A stretch of DNA of 57,380 nt from Candidatus Onthousia excrementipullorum (GTDB lineage: Bacteria > Bacillota_I > Bacilli_A > RF39 > UBA660). Numbering within the stretch: the first letter of the stretch is position 1; every line of letters begins with the position of its first letter. The stretch is from the NCBI GenBank assembly GCA_018712385.1, contig DVHC01000043.1, positions 1 through 57,380 of the forward strand, given 5' to 3'. The notes beneath the pieces are model-generated. The model did not search any database. It saw only the letters and a program-made list of their open reading frames with translations, and was not told the DNA's origin. Positions 18,050-43,052 of this stretch are shown here, piece by piece. Position numbers and translations under genes: made by a program.

Positions 18050-19950
18050 GTGCGACAGTAAGCACTAATTATATAGTTGGAGATTAACCAACCTAGTAAA
18101 CCAGGTCAGGAACTAGTACTAGTCTATGGAGCCAAAATCGTGAGATTAGGTTTAAGCGTTAGAACTAGGAGATATGAGAGGAATAGATACGACACTATCC
18201 AGAGAAGATATTCTCTGCTATTGAGCCTCGTTAATACGATAAATGAAAGCCTATGTTCTATTCATAACAGTAGGCAGTAATACACAAACGCTAATGACAA
18301 GGATGTGTAGGTTTCATCGGGGTCTAAGGGTATTTCGAGCAAATCATAATATAATTAGTGTACCTGTGAGGTCTTGTGAGTTCCAAAGCGTTGACGGTTT
18401 AGAACACCAACGATAAAGGTTTAATACAAACTGGCAGTGAGGTCTTAAAGATGAGTAAAATCAGAGGTCTGTAAATGACTCACAAGAAGTCGGACTAGTT
18501 CATAGTAGTGAAGATATAACGTGGTAGGTTAAGGAGCGAAGGGACTAGCATGTAATCGTTTCTGAATAAGAAACAAATACACATAAGAAAGGTGAAGAAA
18601 TTATGGAAAATGATTATTCAGAAATAAGAAGACAGTTAATAAAATACAAAAATGTTCAAAGTCTAATGCAATACATTAACGAAGATACTTTCATGGCTAA
18701 GCATAAGGCTCTTAATGGAAATAAAGCAGTAGGAGTTGATAAAGTAACAAAGAGTATATTCGATATGAATGCAGAAGAAAACATAAGAAAACTATATGAT
18801 GATATGAAGAAGTATAGATATAAGCCATATCCATCAAGGAGAGTTTATATACCAAAAGCTAATGGTGATAAAAGGCCGTTAGGGATACCTAGTTATCAAG
18901 ATAAAATAGTAGAAGGAGTAATGGCAGATATATTGAATGAAATATATGAGTATATCTTCTTATCCTGTTCTTATGGATTTAGACCAAATAGAGACTGTCA
19001 TCAAGCAATAAATGCACTTGATAAAATAATCATGAAGAAGAAAACAAATTATATAGTTGATGCAGATATAAAAGGTTTCTTTAATAATGTTAATCATGAG
19101 TGGTTAATAAAATTCTTAGAACATACAATAAAGGACAAAAACTTTATAAGGTATATAAAGAGGTTTCTTAAGGCTGGAATTATAGAAAATAATAATTATT
19201 ATGATACAGAAAAAGGAACACCTCAAGGAGGACTTATATCACCAATACTCGCAAATGTTTATTTACATTATGTATTAGACTTATGGTTTGAACTATATGT
19301 TAAAACTAAATGTAAAGGTGAAGCTCATTTAGTAAGATACGCAGATGACTTTGTCGCATGTTTTGAAAACGAGGAGGAAGCAAAGTGGTTTTACAAAGAG
19401 TTAATAGAACGTCTTGCAAAGTTTGATTTAGAAATAGAAACTAGTAAAACCAGAATATTTCCCTTTGGAAGAAACTCTAAAACAAAAGACAATTTTGATT
19501 TCCTAGGTTTTAATATTTACAATAGCAAATCTAGAAAAGGTTACTATATGGTGGGATATAAAACAAGTGAAAAGAAATCAAAACAAAAGAAACAAAAGAT
19601 AAAAGAGCATATAAAAGTAAACAGAGATACTAAGCCTAAAGATTTAGTTAAACAATTAAATAAAATATTAACTGGATACTATAACTATTATGGAATAAGT
19701 TTTAATTTCAATTGGTTAGTAGAAATATATAATTATACATTACTACAATTGAAGAAATGGCTAAGTAGAAGAAGCCAAAGAGGTAAAATGACATGGGAAA
19801 AGTATATGGCAATAATAAGATACAATCCTTTGGTAAAACCTAGAATAACCTATAAGTTATGGTAAATTTCAAAGATTATGTGAAGAGCCGTATGCGGGAA
19901 AGCTGCACGTACGGTTCCGTGAGGGGCGATAGTTTTACTTTCAACCTCAC
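18050..19950 (+). mobile_element. Group II intron (about 1.9 kb) with an intron-encoded reverse transcriptase/maturase
   Basis: The 5' end is GTGCG at 18050. Domain V is GAGCCGTATGCGGGAAAGCTGCACGTACGGTTC (19885-19917). The domain VI stem is GTGAGG...CCTCAC with a bulged A (19943/19944), and the 3' end is AC at 19949-19950. Intron ATTCATAAC (18260-18268) is the exact reverse complement of the last 9 nt of the 5' exon, GTTATGAAT (18041-18049). Confidence 0.9.
18603..19865 (+). CDS. Group II intron reverse transcriptase/maturase with no endonuclease domain
   Basis: 420 aa. RT motifs include RPLGIPSYQDKIV, FRPNRDCHQA, GTPQGGLISPILANVYL and YADDFV. The short C-terminus has an X/maturase region only. 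Confidence 0.9.
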   Translation: MENDYSEIRRQLIKYKNVQSLMQYINEDTFMAKHKALNGNKAVGVDKVTKSIFDMNAEENIRKLYDDMKKYRYKPYPSRRVYIPKANGDKRPLGIPSYQDKIVEGVMADILNEIYEYIFLSCSYGFRPNRDCHQAINALDKIIMKKKTNYIVDADIKGFFNNVNHEWLIKFLEHTIKDKNFIRYIKRFLKAGIIENNNYYDTEKGTPQGGLISPILANVYLHYVLDLWFELYVKTKCKGEAHLVRYADDFVACFENEEEAKWFYKELIERLAKFDLEIETSKTRIFPFGRNSKTKDNFDFLGFNIYNSKSRKGYYMVGYKTSEKKSKQKKQKIKEHIKVNRDTKPKDLVKQLNKILTGYYNYYGISFNFNWLVEIYNYTLLQLKKWLSRRSQRGKMTWEKYMAIIRYNPLVKPRITYKLW

Positions 19951-19974
19951 AAATAAAAGAAAAGAGGTAAAGAA

Positions 19975-21072
19975 ATGAAAGAAAATGGAGGTCGTCTACT
20001 CGACAATTTAAAGTTGATAGTACTAGAGAATATTAAAGAGTTAGGAGAAAAAGTTAATAGTGATTTAAAGTTGATTAGAGGAGAAAAAACTAATTATATG
20101 ATAACTGTTAAGGAAGATAGATTTTCTAATGGTGAAGGTAAAGTAAAAATAGAAGATACGGTTAGAGATAAAGATATTTATATTATCTCTGATGTTGGTA
20201 ATTATGATACTACTTACAATATGCGAGGGATTGTTCATCATATGGGTCCAGATGAACATTTTCAGGATATAAAAAGAACAATACTGGCTTTATCTGGTTA
20301 TCAAGAAAAGATTACTTTAATAATGCCTTTGTTGTATCAAGCAAGACAACATAAAAGAAAAGGAAGAGAATCACTTGACTGTGCCCTTGCTCTGCAAGAA
20401 TTAGAACATTTAGGAGTTAATCATATAATTACTTTTGATGCCCATGATCCTAATGTCTCTAATGCTATTCCAAATCTTCCTTTTGAAAACTTTTATCCTA
20501 CAAATACTATTTTAGAAGATTTGTTACAGAATGAAGATTTAAAAGATATTTTAGTCATAAGTCCTGATATGGGAGCGATGGAGAGAGCAAGGTACTATGC
20601 AGAACTTTTAGATAGTGATGTGGGAGTTTTTTATAAAAGACGTGATTTATCTCGTGTTGTTAATGGTAAAAATCCAATAATTGAACATACTTATATGGGG
20701 AGTGATGTTAAAGATAAAGATGTTTTAGTAGTAGATGATATGATTGCATCCGGCTCATCTATGTTGGAAGTAGGGAAAATGTTAAAAGAAAAAGGAGCTA
20801 GGAAAGTATATTTTATTGCAACTTTCGCCTTATTTACAGAAGGAATAGAGGCTTTTGATAAAGCATATTTAGATGATACTTTTGATAAACTTTATACTAC
20901 TAATCTTTCTTATATACCAAAAGATTTTAAAGATAAGCCTTGGTTTCATACAGTAGACTGCTCAATGAATATTGCGAAAATAATTAATGCTTTACATAAT
21001 AAAGAATCTCTAACTCCTTTATTAAATGGTAAAGAAAAAATATTAAAGTTAAGAGGTGAGAAAACTTTATGA
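19975..21072 (+). CDS. prs: Ribose-phosphate pyrophosphokinase (PRPP synthetase), long form
   Basis: 365 aa. The PRPP-binding loop is VLVVDDMIASGSSM, and DAHD and SPDMGA motifs are present. Confidence 0.8.
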   Translation: MKENGGRLLDNLKLIVLENIKELGEKVNSDLKLIRGEKTNYMITVKEDRFSNGEGKVKIEDTVRDKDIYIISDVGNYDTTYNMRGIVHHMGPDEHFQDIKRTILALSGYQEKITLIMPLLYQARQHKRKGRESLDCALALQELEHLGVNHIITFDAHDPNVSNAIPNLPFENFYPTNTILEDLLQNEDLKDILVISPDMGAMERARYYAELLDSDVGVFYKRRDLSRVVNGKNPIIEHTYMGSDVKDKDVLVVDDMIASGSSMLEVGKMLKEKGARKVYFIATFALFTEGIEAFDKAYLDDTFDKLYTTNLSYIPKDFKDKPWFHTVDCSMNIAKIINALHNKESLTPLLNGKEKILKLRGEKTL

Positions 21073-32948: not shown

Positions 32949-33043
32949 TTAATCACCTTTACTTAAATATATGTTAAAAAAAACTCTTTATCTCATAAAT
33001 ATTACGTATAATTTTAGTAAATAATAATATTGGGGTGAATTCT

Positions 33044-34318
33044 ATGAATATTAAACCTTTAAGAGTTTTGATTATTGTAACTATATTTACTAGTGTAATA
33101 TCTATAGGTTGTGGAATCTTTATTTATAATGATATGAAAGAAAGAGAGGAAGTCTCTTTAAATGTTTCTAGAGCTAGGAAATCTTTAATAAAAGATGAAG
33201 ATGTTTTGATTAAGATAAAATCTAATTATAATAGTAATGTTAAGACTACTAAAGATACTAAACTTTATATAAAAGATAATGATGAATATAAAGATGCAGG
33301 TAGTATAAATAAAAATAATATTTTAGAACTTGAAATAGTAGATAATATTAGTTTAGATAATAAATATTTTAAACTATTAGATAGTGATTATTATGTTTCT
33401 TATAAAGATGTAGAGCCTACTAGTGATACTATTAATAAAAGATATCTTAACTATATAGAGTTTCCATTAGAGGTTACTATTAAAGAAAATATTACTTATT
33501 ATGAAGATGACTTTAAGGAGTTATTTACCTTAAAAAATCCTGTAACTACTAAAGTAGTAGTTAACTTAGATGATTATTATGGTATATCTTTATTATCAAG
33601 ATTAGTCTATGTTAAAAAAGAAGATGTTAGTAACACTATAGAAGTAGATAGCAGTGAAGAAATAGCTGTGTCTGTTCCTGCAATACTTTATCATTTTATT
33701 TATTTAGATGGTGATAATAGTTGTAATGATATAATTTGTCATAGTGAAGAACAAATAGACTCTCATTTTAAGTTTTTAAGTGATAACGATGTTTTTACAC
33801 TAAATACTAGTGAAGTGTTAAGCTTTATTAAGGGTGAGATTAATCTTCCTAAAAAGTCTATTTTAATTACTATTGATGATGGGGCAAGAGCGGAGAACTT
33901 TATTCCTTTCTTAGAGAAGTATGGTTTAAATGCAACTTTGTTTTTAGTTAGTTCATGGTACCCTGTTAGTAAGTTTCAATCTCCTTATTTGGAGATAGCA
34001 AGTCATACTCATAATATGCATACAACTGGTGTTTGTCCTACTGGTCAAGGAGGTGGGATTAACTGTTTACCAGAAAAAGAAATCTTAAATGATTTAAAAC
34101 TTAGTAGAGAAACATTAAATAATACTAAAGCCTTTTGTTTTCCTTTCTATGAATATAGTGACTATTCTATTAACTTAGTTAAAGAAGCAGGCTTTGAAAT
34201 GGCTTTTATTGGCGGTTCAACTAAAATAAAAAAGGGCATAGACCCTTATAAAATACCAAGATATCCTATTTTAAGTAGTTTTGGTGTAGATTATATAAGT
34301 AACTTAGTGTTAGGTTAA
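33044..34318 (+). CDS. Membrane-anchored polysaccharide deacetylase (NodB domain)
   Basis: It has an N-terminal TM. The NodB motifs are ITIDDGARAEN and ASHTHNMH. ATG 33044 is preferred over GTG 33035. Confidence 0.75.
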   Translation: MNIKPLRVLIIVTIFTSVISIGCGIFIYNDMKEREEVSLNVSRARKSLIKDEDVLIKIKSNYNSNVKTTKDTKLYIKDNDEYKDAGSINKNNILELEIVDNISLDNKYFKLLDSDYYVSYKDVEPTSDTINKRYLNYIEFPLEVTIKENITYYEDDFKELFTLKNPVTTKVVVNLDDYYGISLLSRLVYVKKEDVSNTIEVDSSEEIAVSVPAILYHFIYLDGDNSCNDIICHSEEQIDSHFKFLSDNDVFTLNTSEVLSFIKGEINLPKKSILITIDDGARAENFIPFLEKYGLNATLFLVSSWYPVSKFQSPYLEIASHTHNMHTTGVCPTGQGGGINCLPEKEILNDLKLSRETLNNTKAFCFPFYEYSDYSINLVKEAGFEMAFIGGSTKIKKGIDPYKIPRYPILSSFGVDYISNLVLG

Positions 34319-34358
34319 TATTTACGAAAATTCGTAACTAATTTATTACATATTTCTC

Positions 34359-34387
34359 TTGTTATATAGAATTTAATATGATACTAT
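34359..34387 (+). promoter_or_regulatory. Promoter of the small-peptide (toxin-like) transcript, copy 1
   Basis: TTGTTA (34359-34364), a 17-nt spacer and TACTAT (34382-34387), with an extended -10 TG at 34379-34380. Confidence 0.6.
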
Positions 34388-34447
34388 ATTTATAGGAACA
34401 TTTATGTGGGTGTCGCCTCTATTTTTAATGAGAGGAGGACTTAAAAA

Positions 34448-34540
34448 GTGAAGATGAAAACTTTTATATTGAAGCTTTTAAAATCTGTCGCTTTGGTTAT
34501 TATAAGTCTTACCTTATTGATAGTGGCTATAAAGATATAA
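34448..34540 (+). CDS. 30-aa hydrophobic peptide, candidate type I toxin (copy 1)
   Basis: AGGAGG (34433-34438), a 9-nt spacer and a GTG start. The peptide is MKMKTFILKLLKSVALVIISLTLLIVAIKI. A paralog lies at 37620-37715. Confidence 0.55.
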   Translation: MKMKTFILKLLKSVALVIISLTLLIVAIKI

Positions 34541-34545
34541 AATAA

Positions 34546-34565
34546 GACACTCTGCATAGAGTGTC
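34546..34565. terminator. Bidirectional hairpin shared by the peptide mRNA and the convergent antisense transcript (copy 1)
   Basis: GACACTCT-GCAT-AGAGTGTC, with U-rich sequence on the minus-strand side (TTATTTTAT). Confidence 0.55.
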
Positions 34566-34649
34566 GAACTCAAAAAAATTATGAGGTAACATTCATGCAC
34601 AAAATAAATGTTCCTTTTTTTAGTTTATGTAAATTTCTTTTACATATTC

Positions 34650-34678
34650 ATAGTATCATAAATATTAAATTTTGTCAA
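34650..34678 (-). promoter_or_regulatory. Convergent antisense promoter (candidate antitoxin RNA), copy 1
   Basis: The minus strand has TTGACA (34678-34673), a 17-nt spacer and TACTAT (34655-34650), preceded by TG. Confidence 0.6.
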
Positions 34679-34752
34679 AAATCAATTTCAAATAGATAGA
34701 TAAAAATATAATTTTATTATATAATAATTACAAGTTATGAGGTGAGATATTT

Positions 34753-37308
34753 ATGGATGATAGAACTATGATTACAGAATTATCAAATATGACTTTGCCA
34801 ACTTTTATAAGAAAGTTTAATTTAATGACTTTAGATGAAAAAACTAAATTACTTAATAATCCTTATTTAGATGAATTAAATGAAGTAATATTTTCTTCTT
34901 TATTTTTACAAGTTCAAAATATGACTGAAGTTAGAGAATTACTTAATAGCAAAAAAATCTTTCATAAAGTATTAACTTCTCCTAAAAATAAGAAAAAAAG
35001 AAATATTCTTAATATTATAGGTGAAGAAAATTTGCCATTACTAAAATATATTTTTGAAAGTGATTATATTTTAGATTATAAAGAACAATTCCTTGACTAT
35101 ATAGATTCTATTGATTATGAACAGTTTAGAAAAGTCTTAGAAAATATTAATTTAACAAAGTTATATCATCTTTTTTTCAAAGAAAATAATATAGAAGAGT
35201 TAGAAAATATAATTGGTATTTCTTCTCTTAATAAAGATATCTCTTCATCTTTCTTTCAAAAAGTGAAAATGAATATCTTAAATCCATTAGGCGTTTTAAA
35301 AATTAAAAATGAAAAAGAATTAGTACTTTATACTAAATTTGGCTTGTTAATAGAGGTTTTAGAAGAACTACCTGAAATAACTTTCAAAAATGGTGTAGTT
35401 TTACCATATCAAAATATCTTAGATGTAAAAGAAGGTAAAGTAAATAAATTAATATCTCTATTAAAAGAAAAAGGTGATTATTTAGAAGAAGATCTACTAG
35501 AAGTAAGCTTAAAACTTTATTATATTTTTGATTATGATAATGCTAGAAATATTATACTTGATAAGTTTACTAATATTACTCCTAGTGCTATTAATAGAAT
35601 TATAGATTTTAACTTTAAAGACCATAGAAGAGAATATCGTACTAAACATCAAGAACGTTTTTATCATTATGGTATGGAAAATGAAGTTGTAGATGCTCTA
35701 AACAATAATGATTATAACTTTTTCTCTAATCTTTTATATGATGCTGATGAAGAGAAAATTTTATGGTTAAGAGATGAGTTTTTAAAGATAGTATCTATGA
35801 ATAAAGATAATAAAAACTTAAATGAAGCTTTAAAAGTAAAATTATTAGAGTTAATTAATGAAAGAGAAAGTAAAGCGAAAGAGGATTATGCTAAAGATAT
35901 AAGAAAGCGTTTATCTTCTAAGACTGATAAAAAGTTATCTGTAAATGATTTAAAAGAACTGTTTAAAGATGTTTCTCTTGTTAATTTATTAAATAATTAT
36001 GATCAAGATATACTTGTAAGATTAAGACAGTTCTTACTAGGTAACCTTAAAGATAATAATGATTGCCTTCTTCGCTTAATTATAAATAAAGAAGCCCTTG
36101 GCTTAAATAATTTACTTGGTAAGTTGATAAATCAATATGATTTAATAGAGTCTATTGCTAAGAAAAATAAATTATCTTTAAATTCAATCCTTGATGTTAT
36201 TGATATAGTTAAAACAAGTTTTTTCTCACTTAAACCTAATGAACAAGATATATTTTTATCAACAATTGCTAACATAATCTCATCTAAAGAATATTGTACT
36301 GGTAAGAGTGAAGAAGAAATATTAAAAGAAACATGTCAATTACATGTAGAAAGAAAAAGTAAGGTTTATGCTTCAATACCTACTATAGAAGGTGAAAGTG
36401 ATAGTTTTTCTTATAGAGTCGCTCCTTTTGATGCCGAATATTTATTAGCAGCAGGAGTAGATGCTAAAAACTGTTTTCGTATTTCTGGAAAAGGAGAAGA
36501 TTTCTTCCGTTATTGTCTTACAAGTAATCAAGCCGTTATTATGTATTTTACTAACGAAAAGACTAATCATACTTATATATGTCCAATAATTCGTAGTGGT
36601 AATGCTATTCATTGTAATGGTGTAGATCCTAAACTTCCTCTAGATGAAAGAGACGACTTTTTTAAAGCTTTTACTAAGGCAATGAATGAAATAATAATGA
36701 TAAGTTCTAATGAAAGTATTGATAGTGAAAGAATTGAAGTTGCAACTATTACTAATTTACATTTGGAAGATTATTTTAGGGAAAATAGTTATTTAAAATA
36801 TCAACTTGAAACCTATATACCAATAGATTGCCCTTGCTATACTGACTATAATAAGAAAGATAAAGAGAACTATATTATTTCTAAAAGTGATGATTATAAA
36901 GATAATAAATATTATTTAGCGAAAGACAAGTTTTATCAGAAAAGAAAAGAAGATTATGAATTTAATATTGATAAAGAATATGATAAAGAAAGACTATCTT
37001 TAATAGTTAATTCTATCGCTTATTCTGCTATTGATTATAAAAATATTTCTCCATCTTTAAAAAATAGAGCCAAAAGAACTTTTAAACTAATTGATGTTAA
37101 TACTTTTAAATATATAGTAGGAAATAAAGACTGGTATGTGGCAATAGATGATCAATATAATATTTTAGCAAATTTACTACCTTACGATGAAAGAGCTAAA
37201 AAAGAATATATTAAGCATCTAGCACAAGCTCCTTTATTAATAGAAAATATGGAAAAAGAGGAGGAAGAGTATGGAATTAGTAGGGAAAATTTATCAAAAA
37301 ATAAATAG
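34753..37308 (+). CDS. Orphan 851-aa protein with no family recognised by eye
   Basis: The RBS is GAGGTGA. The ORF is long, uninterrupted and helix-rich. The C-terminal region contains conserved-looking Cys/His residues (AKNCFRISGKGEDFFRYC, NAIHCNGVDP). Confidence 0.7.
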   Translation: MDDRTMITELSNMTLPTFIRKFNLMTLDEKTKLLNNPYLDELNEVIFSSLFLQVQNMTEVRELLNSKKIFHKVLTSPKNKKKRNILNIIGEENLPLLKYIFESDYILDYKEQFLDYIDSIDYEQFRKVLENINLTKLYHLFFKENNIEELENIIGISSLNKDISSSFFQKVKMNILNPLGVLKIKNEKELVLYTKFGLLIEVLEELPEITFKNGVVLPYQNILDVKEGKVNKLISLLKEKGDYLEEDLLEVSLKLYYIFDYDNARNIILDKFTNITPSAINRIIDFNFKDHRREYRTKHQERFYHYGMENEVVDALNNNDYNFFSNLLYDADEEKILWLRDEFLKIVSMNKDNKNLNEALKVKLLELINERESKAKEDYAKDIRKRLSSKTDKKLSVNDLKELFKDVSLVNLLNNYDQDILVRLRQFLLGNLKDNNDCLLRLIINKEALGLNNLLGKLINQYDLIESIAKKNKLSLNSILDVIDIVKTSFFSLKPNEQDIFLSTIANIISSKEYCTGKSEEEILKETCQLHVERKSKVYASIPTIEGESDSFSYRVAPFDAEYLLAAGVDAKNCFRISGKGEDFFRYCLTSNQAVIMYFTNEKTNHTYICPIIRSGNAIHCNGVDPKLPLDERDDFFKAFTKAMNEIIMISSNESIDSERIEVATITNLHLEDYFRENSYLKYQLETYIPIDCPCYTDYNKKDKENYIISKSDDYKDNKYYLAKDKFYQKRKEDYEFNIDKEYDKERLSLIVNSIAYSAIDYKNISPSLKNRAKRTFKLIDVNTFKYIVGNKDWYVAIDDQYNILANLLPYDERAKKEYIKHLAQAPLLIENMEKEEEEYGISRENLSKNK

Positions 37309-37474
37309 TAGTAGTGGTTATATTTTAGGAAGTGATGGGAAGTTATATTTATATTTTTGTTATGATTTTTTAGAAGATTTTGATGATAAAATAGGAGAAG
37401 TTGTTTTATTTAAGCCGGTAGATTCTAAAATATTAAGAGCAACTTATATTTCTAAATATTATGGTGAGGATTAG
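37271..37474 (+). CDS. 67-aa protein overlapping the end of the 851-aa gene, possibly with a cold-shock/OB-like fold
   Basis: AGGAGG (37258-37263), a 7-nt spacer and ATG. It overlaps the upstream ORF by 38 nt. The pattern GKIYQKINSSSGYILGSDGKLYLYF...IGEVVLFKP loosely resembles a cold-shock domain. Confidence 0.5.
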   Translation: MELVGKIYQKINSSSGYILGSDGKLYLYFCYDFLEDFDDKIGEVVLFKPVDSKILRATYISKYYGED

Positions 37475-37531
37475 ATTTTAATGCTAATTTATATTTGCGA
37501 AAATTAGTAACTAATTTATTACATTTTTTTC

Positions 37532-37560
37532 TTGTTATATAGAATTTAATATGATACTAT
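37532..37560 (+). promoter_or_regulatory. Promoter of the small-peptide transcript, copy 2
   Basis: TTGTTA (37532-37537), a 17-nt spacer and TACTAT (37555-37560), with TG at 37552-37553. Confidence 0.6.
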
Positions 37561-37619
37561 ATTTATAGGGACATTTATGTGGGTGTCGCCTCCTATTCTA
37601 TAGGAAAGGAGGAAAAGGT

Positions 37620-37715
37620 ATGAAGACAAAGACTTTTATTATAAAAGTACTAAAGCTTATTCCTTTAATTTTATTGAGTCTTTCTTTCTTAGTTCTAACC
37701 TTCAAAATAAAATAG
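37620..37715 (+). CDS. 31-aa hydrophobic peptide, candidate type I toxin (copy 2)
   Basis: AGGAGG, a 7-nt spacer and ATG. The peptide is MKTKTFIIKVLKLIPLILLSLSFLVLTFKIK. Confidence 0.55.
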   Translation: MKTKTFIIKVLKLIPLILLSLSFLVLTFKIK

Positions 37716-37819
37716 ACACTCTGCATTAGAGTGCCACACATAGAATATATGAGGTGACATTCACTTGCAACCTAAATGTTCCTCATTTTTTATTTTATGT
37801 AAATTTCTTTTACACATTC

Positions 37820-37848
37820 ATAGTATCATAAATATTAACTTTTGTCAA
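37820..37848 (-). promoter_or_regulatory. Convergent antisense promoter, copy 2
   Basis: The minus strand has TTGACA (37848-37843), a 17-nt spacer and TACTAT (37825-37820). Confidence 0.6.
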
Positions 37849-38009
37849 AAATCAATTTAATTTTAATTTAAGATAATAGTATATCTAATTTTCAAAGTAA
37901 TTAGATGTCTTTCCACTCGCATTGTAACATAATTTTTTCTAAATAGATAGATAAAAATATAATTTTATTATATAATTATTTTAGAAACGATAGAAAAGAG
38001 TGATGATAT

Positions 38010-41000
38010 ATGAAAAAAATAATGGATGGAAATGAAGCTTGTAGTTATGTTTCATATAATTTTACGGAAGTTGCAGGTATATATCCTATAACTCCTGCAT
38101 CTCCTATGGCAGAACTTACTGATAAATGGGCTAATGAGGGTAAACTTAATTACTTTAATCAACCTGTTAAAGTAGTAGAAATGGAAAGTGAAGCAGGGGC
38201 TGCTGGTATGGTTCATGGTTCTTTGCAGGCTGGATGCTTAACTACTACTTATACTGCTAGTCAAGGCCTTTTATTAATGATACCTAATATGTATAAGATA
38301 GCAGGAGAATTACTTCCTTGTGTTATTAATGTAGCGGCTAGAAGTCTTGCAACTCATGCTTTATCAATCTTTGGTGACCATCAAGATGTTTATGCGGCAA
38401 GAAGTACAGGTTTTGCTATACTTGCCTCATCTTCAGTTCAAGAAGTTATGGATTTAACAGGTGTGGCACATCTATCTGCTATTAAAGGTAGAGTTCCTTT
38501 TATGAACTTTTTTGATGGCTTTAGAACAAGTCATGAACTACAAAAGATAGATGTAATTGACACTAATAAATTAAAAAAACTTGTCGATAAGAAAGCACTT
38601 GATGCTTTTCGTAAGAGAAGTCTTCATCCTGATAATCCTGTAACTCGTGGTACTAGTGAAAATGATGATATTTACTTTCAAGCGGCAGAAGTTAGAAATA
38701 AATACTATTTAGAATTACCTGATATTGTTAACGAATATATGCAGGAGATTAATAAAATAACCGGTAGAAACTATGCACCATTTAATTATTATGGAAGACG
38801 TGATGCTACTAAAGTAATAGTTGCCATGGGTAGTGTTTGTGAGACTATTAAAGAAGTAGTAGATTATTTAAATGACAACGGGGAAAAAGTTGGAGTTGTA
38901 GAAGTACATTTATATAGGCCTTTTTCAAGAGAATATTTCTTAAAGAGTATTCCTAAGACTGTTAAGATGATTGCTGTTCTTGATAGAACTAAAGAAGCAG
39001 GAAGTACTGGTGAACCATTATTCCTTGATGTAGATAATATTATTAAGTCATTAGGTAGTGATATTAAAGTAGTAGGAGGAAGATATGGACTTTCTAGTAA
39101 AAATACTAATCCTGCAATGATAAAAGCAATATATGATAATTTAGAATCTATTAATCATAATTTTACTATTGGAATTGATGATGATGTTACTAATTTAAGT
39201 ATTCCTTATGATAAAGAGTTTAACTTACCACATCGTAATCAAACATCATTCCTTGTTTATGGTTATGGAAGTGATGGAATGGTTTCAGCTTGTAAAGATT
39301 TAATGAAGATAACAGGAGATGCTACTGATGCTTATGTTCAAGGTTATTTCCAATATGATTCTAAAAAGTCAGGTGGAGTTACGCTTAGTCATTTAAGATT
39401 TTCTAAGAATCCTATTAGGTCTACTTATTATGTCGGTAGAGCTAAGTTGTTAGTTTGTACCCAAGATGCTTATCTTACTAAGTTTAGATTTATTAATAAA
39501 ATAAAGAAGAATGGAGTATTCCTTCTTAATAGTAGTAAGACTGATGAGGAAATACTTTCAATGATAAGTAGCGAAGATAAGAAATATATCATTGATAATA
39601 ATATAAAAGTATATGTAGTTAATGCTTATAAAGTTGCTAAAAAAGAAGGACTTGGTAATAAAATTAGTGCAATTATGGAAGCTTTAATCTTTAAGTTTGG
39701 ACATATTATTGATAGTGATTATGCTATTAATAAGTTAAAAGATAATCTTGATATTAGATTTAAACTTAAAGGAAATAATATAGCAGAGAAAAATAAAAAA
39801 GCTGTTGATAATGCTATTAATACAACTCATTTACTTAAGATAGATGAAAATAGTGATGATTATGTAGAAGTAAGTGAGATTAGTTCTAGTTTATTTGATA
39901 TTATTGATAAAAGAGAAGGTGATACTCTTCCTGTTAGTGCTTTCTTAGATAGACCTGATGGTACTGTTGATGGAGGACTATCACGACTTGAAAAACGTGA
40001 TATTAGTGAAGTCGTTCCTAAATATAAGAGTGAAAACTGTATTAGTTGTAACTTATGTTCTCTAGTTTGTCCTCATGCTGTTATTAGACCATTTTTACTA
40101 GACAAAGATGAGGTAGAGAAAGCTCCTACTAGTTTAAATGATAAACTTTTAGACAGTCATTTAGGAGATAATCTAAAATTTACAATTGCTGTTAGTTATA
40201 AAGATTGTACGGGTTGTGGATTATGTGCTAATATCTGTCCTGGAAAGAAGGGTGCTAAAGCCTTAGAGATGGTAAGTAAAGAAAAACTTGTTAATGATAT
40301 TACTTTAAAAGAGACAGAGTACTTATTTAATGAAGTGACTGAAAAAGATGTGATGAGTGTTAGCACTGTTAAAGGAAGTCAGTTTAAGAAGCCTAGATTT
40401 GAGTTTAGTGGAGCATGTGCTGGTTGTGGTGAGACTCCATACCTTAAGTTATTAACCCAATTATTTGGAGATAGATTAGTTATTGCTAATGCAACAGGTT
40501 GTTCATCAATATATGGGGCTTCTAGTCCTTCAACTCCTTATAGTGTTCCTTGGGCTAATTCCTTATTTGAAGATAATGCCGAGTTTGGTTTTGGTATGAA
40601 GATAGCAGATGAAGTTAAGAAAAATCAGTTAAAGAATATTATAAATGAAAATATCTCTAAAGTAGATGAAGAAGAAAAAGATATCTATTTAGATTATGTA
40701 AATGATATTAATGTAGATACTGCTAAAGCCTTACTTTCTGTTATTCCTCATACTAAGATTAAGCCTTTAAAATCTCTAAAGAAATATATTATGCCTATAT
40801 CTTTATGGGCTGTAGGAGGAGATGGTTGGGCTTATGACATTGGCTATAATGGAATTGACCATGTATTAAACAGTGGAGAAAATGTTAACATCTTAGTTCT
40901 TGATACCGAAGTCTATTCTAATACTGGAGGACAATCTAGTAAGTCTAGTAGGATGGGTGCTGTTTTAAAATTTGCTTCAAGTGGTAAAAAGACTGCTAAA

Positions 41001-41438
41001 AAAGACCTTTTAAGAATAGCTTTAACTAATCCTAATGTTTATGTAGGAGCGATATCTTTAGGAGCTAATCCTGCTGCTACTGTTAAAGTAATGTTAGAAG
41101 CTGAAAAATATAATGGGCCTAGTATCATAGTAGCATATTCTCCATGTATTGCTTGGGGTATCTTAAAGGGAATGAGTAATTCTATTGATGAAGAGAAAAA
41201 AGCAACAAGTAGTGGTTATTTCCCAATATTTCATTATAATCCAGATACTAAAGAGTTTAAAATGGATGCTAAAAGTGATTTTAATAAATATCAGGACTAT
41301 TTAACGGGAGAAGATAGATATAAATCATTAAAAATAATAAATAGTGATGAAGCAGATACTTTACTTAAAGAAAATGAAGATAATGCTAAGGGAAGATATG
41401 AATATTATGAAAGTCTAACTATTAAAAATGAGGAGTAG
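38010..41438 (+). CDS. nifJ: Pyruvate:ferredoxin (flavodoxin) oxidoreductase
   Basis: 1142 aa. The N-terminus is MDGNEACSYVSYNFTEVAGIYPITPASPM. The two 4Fe-4S motifs are CISCNLCSLVCPH and CTGCGLCANICP. The TPP region is GGDGWAYDIG. Confidence 0.95.
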   Translation: MKKIMDGNEACSYVSYNFTEVAGIYPITPASPMAELTDKWANEGKLNYFNQPVKVVEMESEAGAAGMVHGSLQAGCLTTTYTASQGLLLMIPNMYKIAGELLPCVINVAARSLATHALSIFGDHQDVYAARSTGFAILASSSVQEVMDLTGVAHLSAIKGRVPFMNFFDGFRTSHELQKIDVIDTNKLKKLVDKKALDAFRKRSLHPDNPVTRGTSENDDIYFQAAEVRNKYYLELPDIVNEYMQEINKITGRNYAPFNYYGRRDATKVIVAMGSVCETIKEVVDYLNDNGEKVGVVEVHLYRPFSREYFLKSIPKTVKMIAVLDRTKEAGSTGEPLFLDVDNIIKSLGSDIKVVGGRYGLSSKNTNPAMIKAIYDNLESINHNFTIGIDDDVTNLSIPYDKEFNLPHRNQTSFLVYGYGSDGMVSACKDLMKITGDATDAYVQGYFQYDSKKSGGVTLSHLRFSKNPIRSTYYVGRAKLLVCTQDAYLTKFRFINKIKKNGVFLLNSSKTDEEILSMISSEDKKYIIDNNIKVYVVNAYKVAKKEGLGNKISAIMEALIFKFGHIIDSDYAINKLKDNLDIRFKLKGNNIAEKNKKAVDNAINTTHLLKIDENSDDYVEVSEISSSLFDIIDKREGDTLPVSAFLDRPDGTVDGGLSRLEKRDISEVVPKYKSENCISCNLCSLVCPHAVIRPFLLDKDEVEKAPTSLNDKLLDSHLGDNLKFTIAVSYKDCTGCGLCANICPGKKGAKALEMVSKEKLVNDITLKETEYLFNEVTEKDVMSVSTVKGSQFKKPRFEFSGACAGCGETPYLKLLTQLFGDRLVIANATGCSSIYGASSPSTPYSVPWANSLFEDNAEFGFGMKIADEVKKNQLKNIINENISKVDEEEKDIYLDYVNDINVDTAKALLSVIPHTKIKPLKSLKKYIMPISLWAVGGDGWAYDIGYNGIDHVLNSGENVNILVLDTEVYSNTGGQSSKSSRMGAVLKFASSGKKTAKKDLLRIALTNPNVYVGAISLGANPAATVKVMLEAEKYNGPSIIVAYSPCIAWGILKGMSNSIDEEKKATSSGYFPIFHYNPDTKEFKMDAKSDFNKYQDYLTGEDRYKSLKIINSDEADTLLKENEDNAKGRYEYYESLTIKNEE

Positions 41439-42182: not shown

Positions 42183-43052
<870 letters not shown>

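Follow-up and report, generated by a model that had tools for sequence, protein, structure and literature searches.

Candidate type I toxin-antitoxin-like cassettes with covarying mRNA end pairing flank variable cargo genes in uncultured gut Bacillota

The window, i.e., the whole stretch of 57,380 nucleotides that was analyzed (contig DVHC01000043.1 of Candidatus Onthousia excrementipullorum), carries between a polysaccharide deacetylase gene and a PFOR gene two direct repeats that bracket the gene of an 851-aa protein and an overlapping 67-aa ORF (Table 1). A preliminary description of this DNA had reported both repeats, about 82 additional bp in the second copy, and in each of them the same elements in the same order: a TTGTTA-17-TACTAT promoter, an AGGAGG sequence with a 30- or 31-codon ORF, a GC-rich hairpin right after the stop codon and a convergent TTGACA-17-TACTAT promoter. 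Alignment and repeat search recovered the repeats and the extra segment, and all the listed elements were found in their places, the Shine-Dalgarno sequence of copy 2 being read as GGAGG. The bracketed gene pair had been considered orphan; this does not hold, as the pair has 51 further homologue clusters, some of them at other loci devoid of cassettes.

The two copies are very similar at their flanks, with 94% identity between 34315-34419 and 37488-37592, 96% between 34616-34688 and 37786-37858, and 98% between 34690-34729 and 37941-37980, and far more diverged in the middle (3' part of the leader, ORF and 3'UTR). Conserved motifs of 22 and 37 nt occur twice each in the window, with none expected. 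The 3' end of the 82-bp segment (37920-37939, CATTGTAACATAATTTTTTC) corresponds to an alternative antisense-promoter segment, with TGtTACAAT in its reverse complement, which is used beside PFOR in other metagenome-assembled genomes (MAGs). The palindrome at the 5' edge is also found in other cassettes read, sometimes degenerate, as in copy 2, and could act as a weak terminator of the upstream gene or as an operator. The last 40 bp of the repeat are a promoter-like site of the downstream gene, outside the cassette proper; the same TAGATA-17-TATAAT module precedes PFOR in a single-cassette locus (L036).

Table 1. Position of the genes, repeats and predicted RNA signals at the locus.
Feature	Position	Strand	Basis or remark
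Repeat copy 1: type A cassette + downstream-gene promoter module	34315..34729	+	repeat search, alignment
Palindrome TTACGAA-AA-TTCGTAA, cassette 5' edge	34322..34337	.	4 nt past deacetylase stop codon
Sense promoter, copy 1: TTGTTA (34359-34364)-17-TGaTACTAT (-10 at 34382-34387), extended -10	34359..34387	+	sequence
Predicted peptide mRNA, copy 1, ~228 nt	34394..34621	+	promoter/terminator positions; fold z = -6.3
5' leader arm of long-distance pairing, AGGAACAUUUAU GUGGGUGUCGCCUC	34394..34419	+	folding, alignment
Shine-Dalgarno AGGAGG, copy 1	34433..34438	+	sequence
Type A 30-codon ORF, MKMKTFILKLLKSVALVIISLTLLIVAIKI, GTG start	34448..34540	+	ORF list
Antisense intrinsic terminator, copy 1: hairpin 34565-34546, then TTATTTTATA	34536..34565	-	sequence
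Predicted antisense RNA, copy 1, ~108 nt	34537..34643	-	fold z = -3.5
Sense terminator, copy 1: hairpin + U-tract, with 3' arm of long-distance pairing (GAGGUAACAUUCAU ... AUAAAUGUUCCU UUUUUU)	34583..34621	+	sequence, folding
Antisense promoter, copy 1: TTGACA-17-TGaTACTAT	34650..34678	-	promoter scan
Promoter-like TAGATA-17-TATAAT, predicted for 851-aa gene	34697..34725	+	promoter scan
851-aa protein gene, cargo between cassettes, conserved family of unknown function	34753..37308	+	ORF list, homologues
67-aa ORF overlapping end of 851-aa gene, conserved partner	37271..37474	+	ORF list, homologues
Repeat copy 2: type B cassette + 82 extra bp + PFOR promoter module	37488..37980	+	repeat search, alignment
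Sense promoter, copy 2: TTGTTA-17-TGaTACTAT	37532..37560	+	sequence
Predicted peptide mRNA, copy 2, ~225 nt	37567..37791	+	fold z = -5.1
Leader arm, copy 2	37567..37592	+	folding
Shine-Dalgarno GGAGG, copy 2	37608..37612	+	sequence
Type B 31-codon ORF, MKTKTFIIKVLKLIPLILLSLSFLVLTFKIK	37620..37715	+	ORF list
Antisense terminator, copy 2: hairpin 37715-37735, then TATTTTATTT	37705..37735	-	sequence
Predicted antisense RNA, copy 2, ~108 nt	37706..37813	-	fold z = -3.2
Sense terminator hairpin + U-tract, copy 2, with 3' arm of long-distance pairing	37751..37791	+	
Antisense promoter, copy 2: TTGACA-17-TGaTACTAT	37820..37848	-	promoter scan
82 bp lacking in copy 1	37859..37940	.	alignment
Promoter-like TAGATA-17-TATAAT upstream of PFOR	37948..37976	+	promoter scan
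PFOR gene	38010-41438		

For comparison, 54 related cassettes were collected from MAGs and metagenomes. The Shine-Dalgarno sequence and an ORF of 25-32 codons are intact in 53 of them; an interrupted ORF in a retained repeat, which the preliminary description had named as evidence against its reading, is found in a single cassette (L040). The first codon of the type A ORF is ATG in two cassettes (L034 and L039). The set encodes 22 distinct peptides, all with the same layout: a basic N-terminus, M-[KSN]-x-K-[TD]-[FLY], one hydrophobic helix of transmembrane length, and almost no tail. Within-type pN/pS values of 0.15-0.39 (0.15 for type A) show that the ORF is under purifying selection. More than 80 additional protein clusters carry the same peptide; none of them bears a functional name (the sole label, in one case, is 'hypothetical protein') or a Pfam domain. 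As the preliminary description had supposed, the peptides fall outside any named toxin family, with no match in Rfam, Pfam, NCBIfam or PADLOC. Since they match no toxin model, family membership is judged by architecture alone.

The sense promoter is a modest match to the consensus (8/12 positions plus the extended -10 TG), below what the promoter scan listed, and lies in an 80-bp module that is 81-92% identical between cassette types. The mRNA start was set 7 nt past the -10 box and its end at the U-tract. Both RNAs had been proposed to end at the same hairpin; nonetheless, the sense unit has a separate terminator further downstream. In copy 1, the post-stop hairpin has no T-run on the plus strand, and in the four types read its sequence differs each time, with the T-run always on the minus strand only; this hairpin is thus read as a terminator for the antisense unit only. 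Therefore, the predicted sense and antisense RNAs measure about 228 and 108 nt, respectively. The latter, in copy 1, comprises a stem-loop at the 5' end, a central hairpin whose sequence complements the sense terminator, and the 3' terminator, and overlaps the 3'UTR and the stop codon of the mRNA. With regard to its promoter, both copies match 10/12 positions and are among the top promoter-like sites of the region, being the only two of those with an extended -10 TG. A minus-strand extended -10 promoter is found at the same position in all 54 cassettes, in three sequence versions: TTGACA-17-TGaTACTAT (37 cassettes), TTGCAT-17 with a TGaTATGAT-type -10 box (7), and a TGtTACAAT extended -10 box without -35 box (9); L068, whose contig stops short of the -35 box, is counted apart. 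Distant members have TTGAAA-17-TGtTATTAT and TTGATA-17-TGaTATTAT.

The mRNA pairs through its first 26-32 nt with its own terminator region. The leader arm includes a 22-mer, ACATTTATGTGGGTGTCGCCTC (34398-34419), that occurs exactly twice in the window. This leader/3'UTR duplex is present in all 39 unique sense RNAs (dG of -28 to -36 kcal/mol, z of -4.7 to -7.3), and cognate leader/3'UTR pairs are more stable than cross-type pairs. In alignment A3, paired cells make up 95%, a share that falls to 43-52% on sliding the partners, and 10 of the 24 pairs are changed on both sides; the covariation score (0.36 versus 0.17) was reached by none of 500 shuffles, a statistic that overstates independence because the covariation comes from a handful of independent lineages (A/B, C, three D subtypes, L070, and L073). 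Further compensatory changes are seen in the distant cassettes L070 and L073, whose duplex still spans 28 bp (z of -7.8 and -9.3). Since many of the conserved pairs are G-U, the structure is specific to the sense strand. According to folding predictions, the Shine-Dalgarno sequence is partly paired in the type A copy of the window (35-49% unpaired) and for the most part paired in copy 2 as well as in types C and D, and the nascent leader forms a local anti-Shine-Dalgarno hairpin. A simple switch, in which release of the leader would close the Shine-Dalgarno sequence, found no support in folding.

Most cassettes lie, singly or in tandem, at a hotspot between polysaccharide deacetylase and PFOR genes, where they alternate with variable cargo genes; in L041 and L044, the cargo gene is interrupted by insertion sequence (IS) copies. 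The related cassettes form tandem arrays and occupy several chromosomal loci, some of them adjoining housekeeping genes such as rimP-nusA or pyruvate kinase, and other low-GC MAGs carry this peptide and architecture in solitary cassettes at unrelated loci. The cassettes are mostly chromosomal, and a search for phage or plasmid matches found none. The promoter modules are 81-98% identical across types, against 56-80% for the transcribed cores, and modules have been shuffled between cassettes. This hotspot context with its shuffling, the covarying 5'-3' end pairing, and the sense RNA's own downstream terminator are all additions to the preliminary description.

The cassettes probably constitute a new type I toxin-antitoxin-like family of the 3'-overlap class, with end pairing like that of AapA and hok. 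This candidate family is previously unnamed and is widespread in uncultured gut Bacillota. The 3'-overlap architecture put forward in the preliminary description has gained support from the 54-cassette comparison, namely from the ORF constraint, the minus-strand promoter and the post-stop T-run; the occurrence in tandem arrays and at several chromosomal sites, as is usual for chromosomal type I loci, also speaks for it. Each repeat would be a self-contained, convergently transcribed module. The plus strand would give an mRNA of about 225-255 nt for a peptide of 25-32 residues. From its strong extended -10 promoter, the minus strand would yield a transcript of about 105-140 nt that is complementary to the mRNA 3'UTR throughout and stops at the terminator just past the stop codon. 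During transcription, a CCUC(C) anti-Shine-Dalgarno stretch of the leader, or a stretch of the coding region, would mask the Shine-Dalgarno sequence. Once the 3'UTR is complete, the first 26-32 nt could pair with both arms of the message's own terminator, burying both RNA ends and resulting in a stable, poorly translated message, like those of AapA1 and hok. The antisense RNA would target this same 3'UTR, its entry probably being at a 7-13-nt loop that stays open after end pairing, and might displace the leader, given its perfect complementarity as opposed to the several G-U pairs of the leader; it could equally be that the leader, by occupying the antisense target, shields the folded mRNA from the antisense RNA. 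The long sense/antisense duplex would be a substrate of RNase III, as in txpA/RatA and bsrG/SR4, and loss of the short-lived antisense RNA would lead to peptide synthesis and membrane damage. Overexpression of any hydrophobic peptide can be toxic. The cassettes would most likely stabilize the hotspot segments between variable cargo genes, and their near-identical promoter bookends may offer homology for cargo gain, cargo loss and module shuffling.

The same architecture might serve, with no toxin-antitoxin function, a harmless small membrane protein whose level is set by a cis-antisense RNA together with mRNA folding; such a protein could, for instance, modulate a membrane enzyme, a transporter or sporulation. 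Any antisense-regulated small protein would account for the coding constraint and the antisense signals; the chromosomal position, the housekeeping neighbors of some cassettes and the absence of phage or plasmid links in the search also suit this reading. We regard this explanation as unlikely. Diverged paralogues in tandem arrays, several loci within the lineage, extreme predicted sequestration of both mRNA ends and the Shine-Dalgarno sequence, a predicted constitutive antisense promoter close to the consensus, and peptides that have practically no soluble portion mark type I toxin loci rather than regulatory small proteins; in addition, the cassette neighbors vary and, therefore, there is no conserved partner gene. 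The alternation of cassettes with cargo between two core genes, the contrast between bookends and cores, the shuffling, and the downstream gene's promoter in the repeat tail might indicate that the repeats serve chiefly as structural DNA, be it promoter/terminator insulator modules or recombination scaffolds separating cargo genes in a hotspot, with an incidental ORF and antisense unit. This is quite improbable in view of the nearly universal integrity of the ORF, pN/pS values well below 1, compensatory RNA pairing with strand-specific G-U pairs, and the solitary cassettes at unrelated loci.

Two other explanations have even less in their favor. The succession of promoter, short ORF, terminator hairpin and downstream gene on one strand resembles a transcription attenuator, in which the small ORF would be a leader peptide controlling the 851-aa gene or PFOR. 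Such control is very improbable, as some tandem cassettes have no intervening gene, others precede opposite-strand genes (a 153-aa ORF in L014 and L040, a convergent 331-336-aa ORF in L034 and L039), and the genes that follow cassettes are unrelated to each other; moreover, the stretch from terminator to downstream gene contains a near-consensus promoter in convergent orientation as well as that gene's separate promoter, and no alternative antiterminator fold was seen. Least probable of all is a small non-autonomous MITE-like mobile element spread in these genomes: multi-copy intergenic units of about 400 bp at several loci would suit it, but the cassette edges lack terminal inverted repeats and target-site duplications, the spacers between tandem units vary, the only transposases are those of the IS copies within the cargo gene, with no recombinase or transposase gene seen beside a cassette, and same-locus copies are diverged paralogues instead of near-identical insertions.

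A toxin mRNA and an antisense RNA that converge and overlap at the 3' end of the mRNA, a small hydrophobic peptide and a buried Shine-Dalgarno sequence are an organization already summarized for type I systems (PMC8594479; PMC10730256), with the antisense RNA on the 3' side in Gram-positive families (PMC8594479). [quoted passage not shown] Unlike these systems, to which no sequence or Rfam match links them, the cassettes are not on prophages and their overlap is essentially limited to the 3'UTR. In TxpA and BsrG, the helix is N-terminal and the C-terminal tail charged, a topology that is inverted here: the N-terminus is basic, the C-terminus is hydrophobic and a charged tail is missing. In the cassettes, the segment targeted by the antisense RNA is the one with which the 5' end of the mRNA pairs, a feature that, to our knowledge, has not been described for txpA/RatA or bsrG/SR4.

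The par locus of Enterococcus faecalis (Fst, RNA I/RNA II), and the Fst/Ldr superfamily, also resemble the cassettes in convergence, a peptide of about 30 aa and an antisense overlap outside the ORF, the RNAs of par converging around terminator hairpins (PMC8594479). However, the par interaction uses 5' direct repeats outside the overlap, and a search of the cassettes for such antisense/5' complementarity gave nothing convincing. Fst combines a hydrophobic N-terminus with a charged C-terminal tail, the latter lacking in these peptides, and the Fst models included in the Pfam/NCBIfam search did not match them. In Clostridioides difficile, type I toxins of 34-47 aa have been reported, together with cognate-specific antitoxins and a demonstrated role in stabilizing genomic segments (PMC7699646). 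CD0956.2/RCd10 and CD0977.1/RCd11 are likewise convergent systems with multiple paralogues in a low-GC spore-former, although the toxins (34-53 aa) are found in prophages and near CRISPR arrays. Their N-terminus is hydrophobic and their C-terminus Lys-rich; no family model connects these toxins with the peptides described here. In size and topology, the peptides are similar to ShoB and Ibs of Escherichia coli, in which a short basic N-terminus is followed by a hydrophobic stretch up to the C-terminus. The RNA organization of these proteobacterial systems, with a divergent or fully overlapping sRNA, is nonetheless unrelated, and no homology was detected.

Regarding end pairing, the closest parallels are aapA1/IsoA1 of Helicobacter pylori and hok/Sok of plasmid R1, unlike which the present hosts are Gram-positive-type Bacillota. 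The antisense RNAs of AapA and Hok bind to the 5' region, which requires prior 3' trimming, while here the antisense RNA is encoded opposite the 3'UTR, i.e., the fold-back element. Unlike in hok/Sok, a mok-like leader ORF is not conserved, the leader ATG opening frames of varying length and frame. End pairing keeps the AapA1 mRNA inert, stable, poorly translated and efficiently terminated, and metastable 5' hairpins mask its ribosome-binding site during transcription (PMC5416894). The cassettes resemble these systems in their end pairing, which here spans 26-32 nt and covaries, and in a predicted nascent anti-Shine-Dalgarno hairpin.

The cassette region lies in AT-rich DNA (window G+C, 28.5%) between the genes for a polysaccharide deacetylase and a pyruvate:ferredoxin oxidoreductase (PFOR). 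The direct repeats claimed there by the preliminary description were recovered by repeat search and pairwise alignment, and two conserved motifs, 22 and 37 nt long, have exactly two occurrences apiece in the window, none being expected. Between copy 1 (type A) and copy 2 (type B), identity is 94% in the initial 105 bp, 96% in a 73-bp stretch surrounding the minus-strand promoter and 98% in the final 40 bp, the central part being far more diverged than the edges; the alignment also placed the 82 bp that copy 2 had been said to possess in addition. The five elements attributed to each repeat, i.e., plus-strand promoter, leader, peptide ORF with its Shine-Dalgarno sequence (SD), post-stop hairpin, and convergent minus-strand promoter, were all found where the preliminary description had put them. 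Although the hairpin after the stop codon is present, it has a T-run on the minus strand only, none for the sense RNA, and therefore terminates the antisense unit only. The idea that both RNAs end at this one hairpin had to be abandoned, since the sense RNA has a separate hairpin with a U-tract, about 40–80 nt further downstream. The last 40 bp of the repeat constitute a promoter-like site for the downstream gene (TAGATA-17-TATAAT), a module also present upstream of PFOR in single-cassette relatives. The 5′ edge of the cassettes read, from a few to about 20 nt past the upstream stop codon, is a palindrome (TTACGAA-AA-TTCGTAA) that could serve as a weak terminator or operator.

Coordinates of the features in the window and in related loci
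Feature	Sequence	Position	Strand	Remark
Group II intron RNA domains	Window	18081-18332 and 19883-20004	+	Rfam RF02005, 87 bits; RF00029, 54 bits
Polysaccharide deacetylase gene	Window	33035-34318		Left neighbour of the cassette region
Copy 1 (type A cassette)	Window	34315-34729
Palindrome, copy 1	Window	34322-34337
Leader ATG frame, copy 1	Window	34404-34451		15 codons
Sense-RNA hairpin and U-tract, copy 1	Window	34583-34621	+
851-aa and 67-aa gene pair	Window	34753-37474	+	Cargo between copies 1 and 2
Copy 2 (type B cassette)	Window	37488-37980
Palindrome, copy 2	Window	37495-37510		Degenerate version
Sense-RNA hairpin and U-tract, copy 2	Window	37751-37791	+
Extra 82 bp of copy 2	Window	37859-37940
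PFOR gene	Window	38010-41438		Right neighbour of the cassette region
Collagen-repeat protein gene	Window	42183-43034	-	Weak BclA-like match
SspI gene	L001	1-165		Near collagen-repeat protein gene
Cargo gene	L013	496-1224		Hotspot locus
Insertion sequence in 851-aa gene	L041	4190-5026		DDE_Tnp_4 transposase
Insertion sequence in 851-aa gene	L044	6573-7391		DDE_Tnp_4 transposase
Distant cassette member	L076	3001-3450		ORF and 3′UTR terminator kept

Relatives were collected with the leader 20-mer ACATTTATGTGGGTGTCGCC, which returned 42 loci when one genome per species was scanned. About 15 of these, in Clostridia MAGs, are unrelated (L007, L008, L012, L017, L018, L024-L026, L028, L031, L033, L035, L037, L038, and L042): the exact 20-mer codes for TFMWVSP in the C-terminal region of a LysR-family regulator, a coding coincidence with no cassette. 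The remaining loci come from AT-rich MAGs labelled uncultured Bacilli, uncultured Tenericutes or Candidatus Onthousia (a genus of uncultured Bacilli), and their cassettes are homologous to those of the window. BLAST inside these loci added further diverged cassettes at 69–70% identity, and a gapped promoter pattern, about half of whose metagenome matches were rejected as chance, yielded more from metagenomes, one human gut sample among them. The comparison covered 8 kb of sequence per matched locus. The collection, from which the two metagenome copies of the window locus itself were left out, amounts to 54 cassettes with 22 distinct peptides of 25–32 residues, one truncated copy aside. When 1.84 billion representative proteins were searched with a profile, and a word-indexed search was added, more than 80 further clusters carrying the same peptide emerged (typical sequence, MKTKTFIVKVLKLIAIILLLSTLLVLAIKK); none of these has a functional name (one is called only "hypothetical protein") or a Pfam domain. 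Members in other low-GC, spore-former-like MAGs occupy unrelated chromosomal loci, for instance adjoining rimP-nusA or spoIIIAH. In the distant member L076 the conserved leader is missing, and with it the end pairing (duplex z of only -2.1); this is a decayed copy or else a variant whose 5′ end is different.

Some other features of these genomes deserve mention. The group II intron RNA domains suggest that a mobile intron lies some 14 kb upstream of the cassettes. The collagen-repeat protein, with its weak BclA-like match, and the nearby SspI gene point to a spore-forming organism, yet related MAGs are labelled "Tenericutes" or "Bacilli".

The representative peptides of the four cassette types are MKMKTFILKLLKSVALVIISLTLLIVAIKI (type A), MKTKTFIIKVLKLIPLILLSLSFLVLTFKIK (type B), MSKKDFLVSTLLFIIILLIVLLFVVIIILI (type C), and MNRKDLLIISLIIIILLLIKLLFLTI (type D). 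In all peptides a basic N-terminal motif precedes a hydrophobic stretch reaching, or almost reaching, the C-terminus. As in type I toxins, the ORF is shorter than 60 aa, hydrophobic and of membrane type, and has its own ribosome-binding site. The check proposed earlier, whether the ORF is the conserved unit in relatives, came out in its favor: the SD and a 25–32-codon ORF are intact in 53 of the 54 cassettes, the exception being L040, which has suffered an internal deletion. Within-type pN/pS values of 0.15 (A), 0.21 (B), 0.15 (C), and 0.39 (D), from non-independent pairs and an ORF that also lies inside a structured RNA, point to a peptide under purifying selection. The start is fixed by comparison, as copy 1 of the window has GTG for its first codon where two related loci (L034 and L039) have ATG. 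A further ATG frame in the leader was considered as a mok-like leader ORF. In copy 1 it ends in a stop codon that overlaps the initial GTG of the peptide ORF; it has 8 codons in copy 2, is fused in frame in type C, and is absent in type D, and this variation in length and frame rules it out as a conserved feature. Gene callers often pick this leader ATG and produce spurious MWVS... extensions, hence the spurious 42–78-aa versions of the peptide in public protein sets (entries P0053 and P0058, among others).

On the opposite strand, all 54 cassettes have an extended -10 promoter at the corresponding site, which comes in three sequence versions: TTGACA-17-TGaTACTAT (37 cassettes), TTGCAT-17 with a TGaTATGAT-type -10 box (7 cassettes), and an extended -10 box, TGtTACAAT, without a -35 box (9 cassettes); in locus L068 the contig ends short of the -35 box. 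Two distant members have TTGAAA-17-TGtTATTAT (L070) and TTGATA-17-TGaTATTAT (L073). The post-stop hairpin differs in sequence among the four types read, and its T-run is restricted to the minus strand in each; likewise, the predicted antisense RNA keeps a short 5′ stem-loop whose sequence differs. This replacement of promoter and terminator sequences with preserved function is good indirect evidence, if not proof, for a minus-strand RNA of about 105–140 nt. The sequence signals outline a predicted antisense gene that, as in type I systems, is complementary to the peptide mRNA and carries a promoter and a terminator of its own; in copy 1 its RNA would run from 34643 to about 34537 (about 108 nt). 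The predicted antisense RNA would be fully complementary to the mRNA 3′UTR and stop codon, with a predicted overlap of about 85–110 nt of 3′UTR plus the stop codon.

A property absent from the preliminary description concerns the fold of the peptide mRNA. The predicted sense RNAs of copies 1 and 2 fold very stably (z = -6.3 and -5.1), their first nucleotides pairing with the 3′ end. In copy 1 the predicted RNA extends from 34394 to about 34621 (about 230 nt), with helices 34394-34405/34604-34615 and 34406-34419/34583-34596. In all 39 unique sense RNAs, the first 26–32 nt pair almost without interruption with the two arms of the sense terminator, at -28 to -36 kcal/mol (z from -4.7 to -7.3 against shuffled leaders). 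Cognate leader/3′UTR combinations reach -31 to -35 kcal/mol versus -21 to -27 kcal/mol for cross-type combinations (groups A/B, C, and D). In a MAFFT alignment of the leader plus the 3′ end, standard pairs occupy 95% of the cells versus 43–52% when the partners are slid by 1–3 columns, 10 of the 24 pairs of the helix show changes on both sides, and the covariation score is 0.36 versus 0.17 in shuffles, with none of 500 shuffles as high, values behind which stand few independent lineages. Several conserved pairs are G-U and render the helix sense-strand-specific, which speaks against a simple inverted repeat in the DNA. A 28-bp duplex is retained in the distant members L070 and L073 (z = -7.8 and -9.3), with more compensatory changes, e.g., GUCUUCUC/GAGAAGAC. 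The predicted transcription start, 7 nt past the -10 box, is the first paired base and the U-tract directly follows the helix. The SD is predicted to be only 1–13% unpaired in copy 2 and in types C and D, and 40–49% unpaired, i.e., partly paired, in the type A copy of the window. In the folding models its partner is a local CCUCC/UCUCC anti-SD hairpin, in a register that differs among cassette types, or a stretch of the coding region.

Beside the architecture, coding constraint, covarying end pairing, and conserved antisense signals observed here, a course of regulation can be proposed. The mRNA would be stable and translationally quiet because both of its ends and its ribosome-binding site are buried; of the type I pattern of a stable toxin mRNA beside a labile antitoxin RNA, the buried 5′ and 3′ ends of the folding model hint at the first part. 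The antisense RNA would pair with the 3′UTR, probably starting from the 7–13-nt loop that end pairing leaves open, and, being perfectly complementary, might displace the G-U-rich leader, so that leader and antisense RNA would compete for one 3′UTR segment. The resulting long duplex would be cleaved, by analogy with txpA/RatA and bsrG/SR4, and loss of the antisense RNA would allow synthesis of a membrane-damaging peptide. Two other ways of coupling antisense RNA and mRNA were weighed. One is a switch in which the antisense RNA frees the leader, whose CCUCC then shuts the SD; constrained folding gave essentially equal SD accessibility with or without the 3′UTR and so did not support this switch. 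The other is an Fst-like contact of the antisense RNA with the mRNA 5′ part outside the overlap, where par uses 5′ direct repeats; it is unconvincing, as the predicted duplexes (z of about -1.2 and -3.3) are not clearly better than shuffled controls. Competition of leader and antisense RNA at the 3′UTR is, to our knowledge, not described for any family.

Nearly all close relatives have their cassettes between the deacetylase and PFOR genes, and the content of this interval is variable. It consists of one cassette in L036, the 851-aa gene and a cassette in L022, cassette A, the 851-aa and 67-aa genes and cassette B in the window, two cassettes around a 378-aa gene in L016, and three cassettes alternating with a 378-aa and a 287-aa gene in L019, in this order from deacetylase to PFOR. 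Cargo at other loci comprises 384-aa, 153-aa or 242-aa genes, and cargo-free tandem cassettes, up to three in a row, are also seen. The cargo at L013 and at equivalent positions of other hotspot loci differs between MAGs. Most cargo proteins, the 377–384-aa, 287-aa, and 153-aa ones among them, have no family, and those of the window had no match in Pfam, NCBIfam, PADLOC or PHROGs. The 242-aa HAD hydrolase of another MAG matches the PADLOC defence candidate PDC-S34 (E = 9e-34), a hint that the hotspot may gather defence-type genes. Across types, the two promoter modules are 81–98% identical and the leader, ORF, and 3′UTR 56–80%; moreover, one ORF type occurs with differing leader, 3′UTR, and antisense-promoter modules, which indicates that cassettes recombine with one another. 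The conserved edges could mediate the gain and loss of cargo. By analogy, the cassettes could stabilise cargo like the type I systems of C. difficile prophages, for which such a role has been demonstrated (PMC7699646). A phage or plasmid origin was rejected, as a megablast search of 34300–38010 against PLSDB and INPHARED and two viral-contig scans were empty.

The gene pair enclosed by the window cassettes, earlier called orphan, does not merit this name, since the 851-aa protein has 51 further homologue clusters, none of them functionally named. Homologues of 39–56% identity are found at other loci, adjoining Lon_C and mutS, thyA or gyrA, and those of 44–56% identity are followed by the small ORF. 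No cassette accompanies the homologues at these other loci; an intrinsic link between cassette and 851-aa gene is thereby ruled out. The pair, also present at loci L045-L050, forms a module of two genes, conserved in low-GC Bacilli and not intrinsically cassette-bound. The AlphaFold model of the 851-aa protein, a confident one (pLDDT 87.7), has a helical N-terminal part of about 530 residues followed by an alpha/beta region, with only weak fold matches to GNAT acetyltransferases (best E, 8e-3). In two MAGs (L041 and L044) an insertion sequence splits the 851-aa gene.

The family, which comparison supports, has a wide distribution among uncultured low-GC gut Bacillota and bears no functional name in databases. 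Its predicted design would unite two principles, the 3′-overlapping antisense RNA of Gram-positive bacteria and the 5′–3′ end pairing of hok/AapA, which we know only from separate systems. With the antisense RNA aimed at the fold-back element itself, it becomes testable whether the fold-back shields the mRNA from the antitoxin or hands it over. The hotspot, where cassettes and variable genes alternate, is a natural system in which to examine whether chromosomal cargo is stabilised and shuffled by type I modules, and the peptides with their cognate RNAs might provide counter-selection or orthogonal RNA-control parts for low-GC anaerobes. A more far-reaching reading, which we consider rather unlikely, is a new type I regulatory logic: the mRNA 5′ end would be an imperfect, G-U-rich copy of the pairing segment of the antitoxin, leader and antitoxin would be rivals for one 3′UTR site, and end pairing would act as a weaker "self-antitoxin" or shield, while cassette arrays with near-identical promoter bookends would form an integrase-free gene-cassette system that holds and shuffles the variable cargo of the hotspot.

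The comparison of architectures lends in silico backing to the type I toxin-antitoxin-like interpretation, and the earlier impression that the peptides belong to no named toxin family was borne out, as none matched in Pfam, NCBIfam or PADLOC. At the gathering threshold, Rfam recognizes only the group II intron elsewhere in the window, and at E up to 10 the cassettes give only chance matches to eukaryotic snoRNAs and miRNAs. With no model of Rfam, Pfam, NCBIfam or PADLOC fitting their RNAs or peptides, the cassettes belong to no named family. As in TxpA/RatA and BsrG-E-H/SR4-5, the antisense RNA lies on the 3′ side and partly overlaps the mRNA, but there is no toxin or antitoxin homology to these systems (Rfam, Pfam, and NCBIfam, E up to 10). 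Fst has a hydrophobic N-terminus and a charged C-terminal tail; unlike Fst of the Fst/RNAII (par) system, to which Pfam and NCBIfam gave no match, the peptides described here end in the hydrophobic helix. The 5′–3′ end pairing of the mRNA is shared with Hok/Sok and AapA/IsoA, and is here covarying and conserved across the cassette family; in those systems, however, the antisense RNA is opposite the 5′ region or translation start, whereas here it is opposite the 3′UTR. Antisense RNAs of hok and AapA aim at the 5′ region, and end pairing is not a known trait of the Gram-positive 3′-overlap families (PMC8594479, PMC5416894). In H. pylori AapA1, end pairing renders the full-length mRNA stable and poorly translated and ensures efficient termination, and its arrangement, with the start as first paired base and the U-tract after the helix, is that of the cassettes (PMC5416894). 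Judged from its sequence, the system would resemble the 3′-overlapping type I systems of Gram-positive bacteria, combined with an end pairing of the AapA/hok kind.
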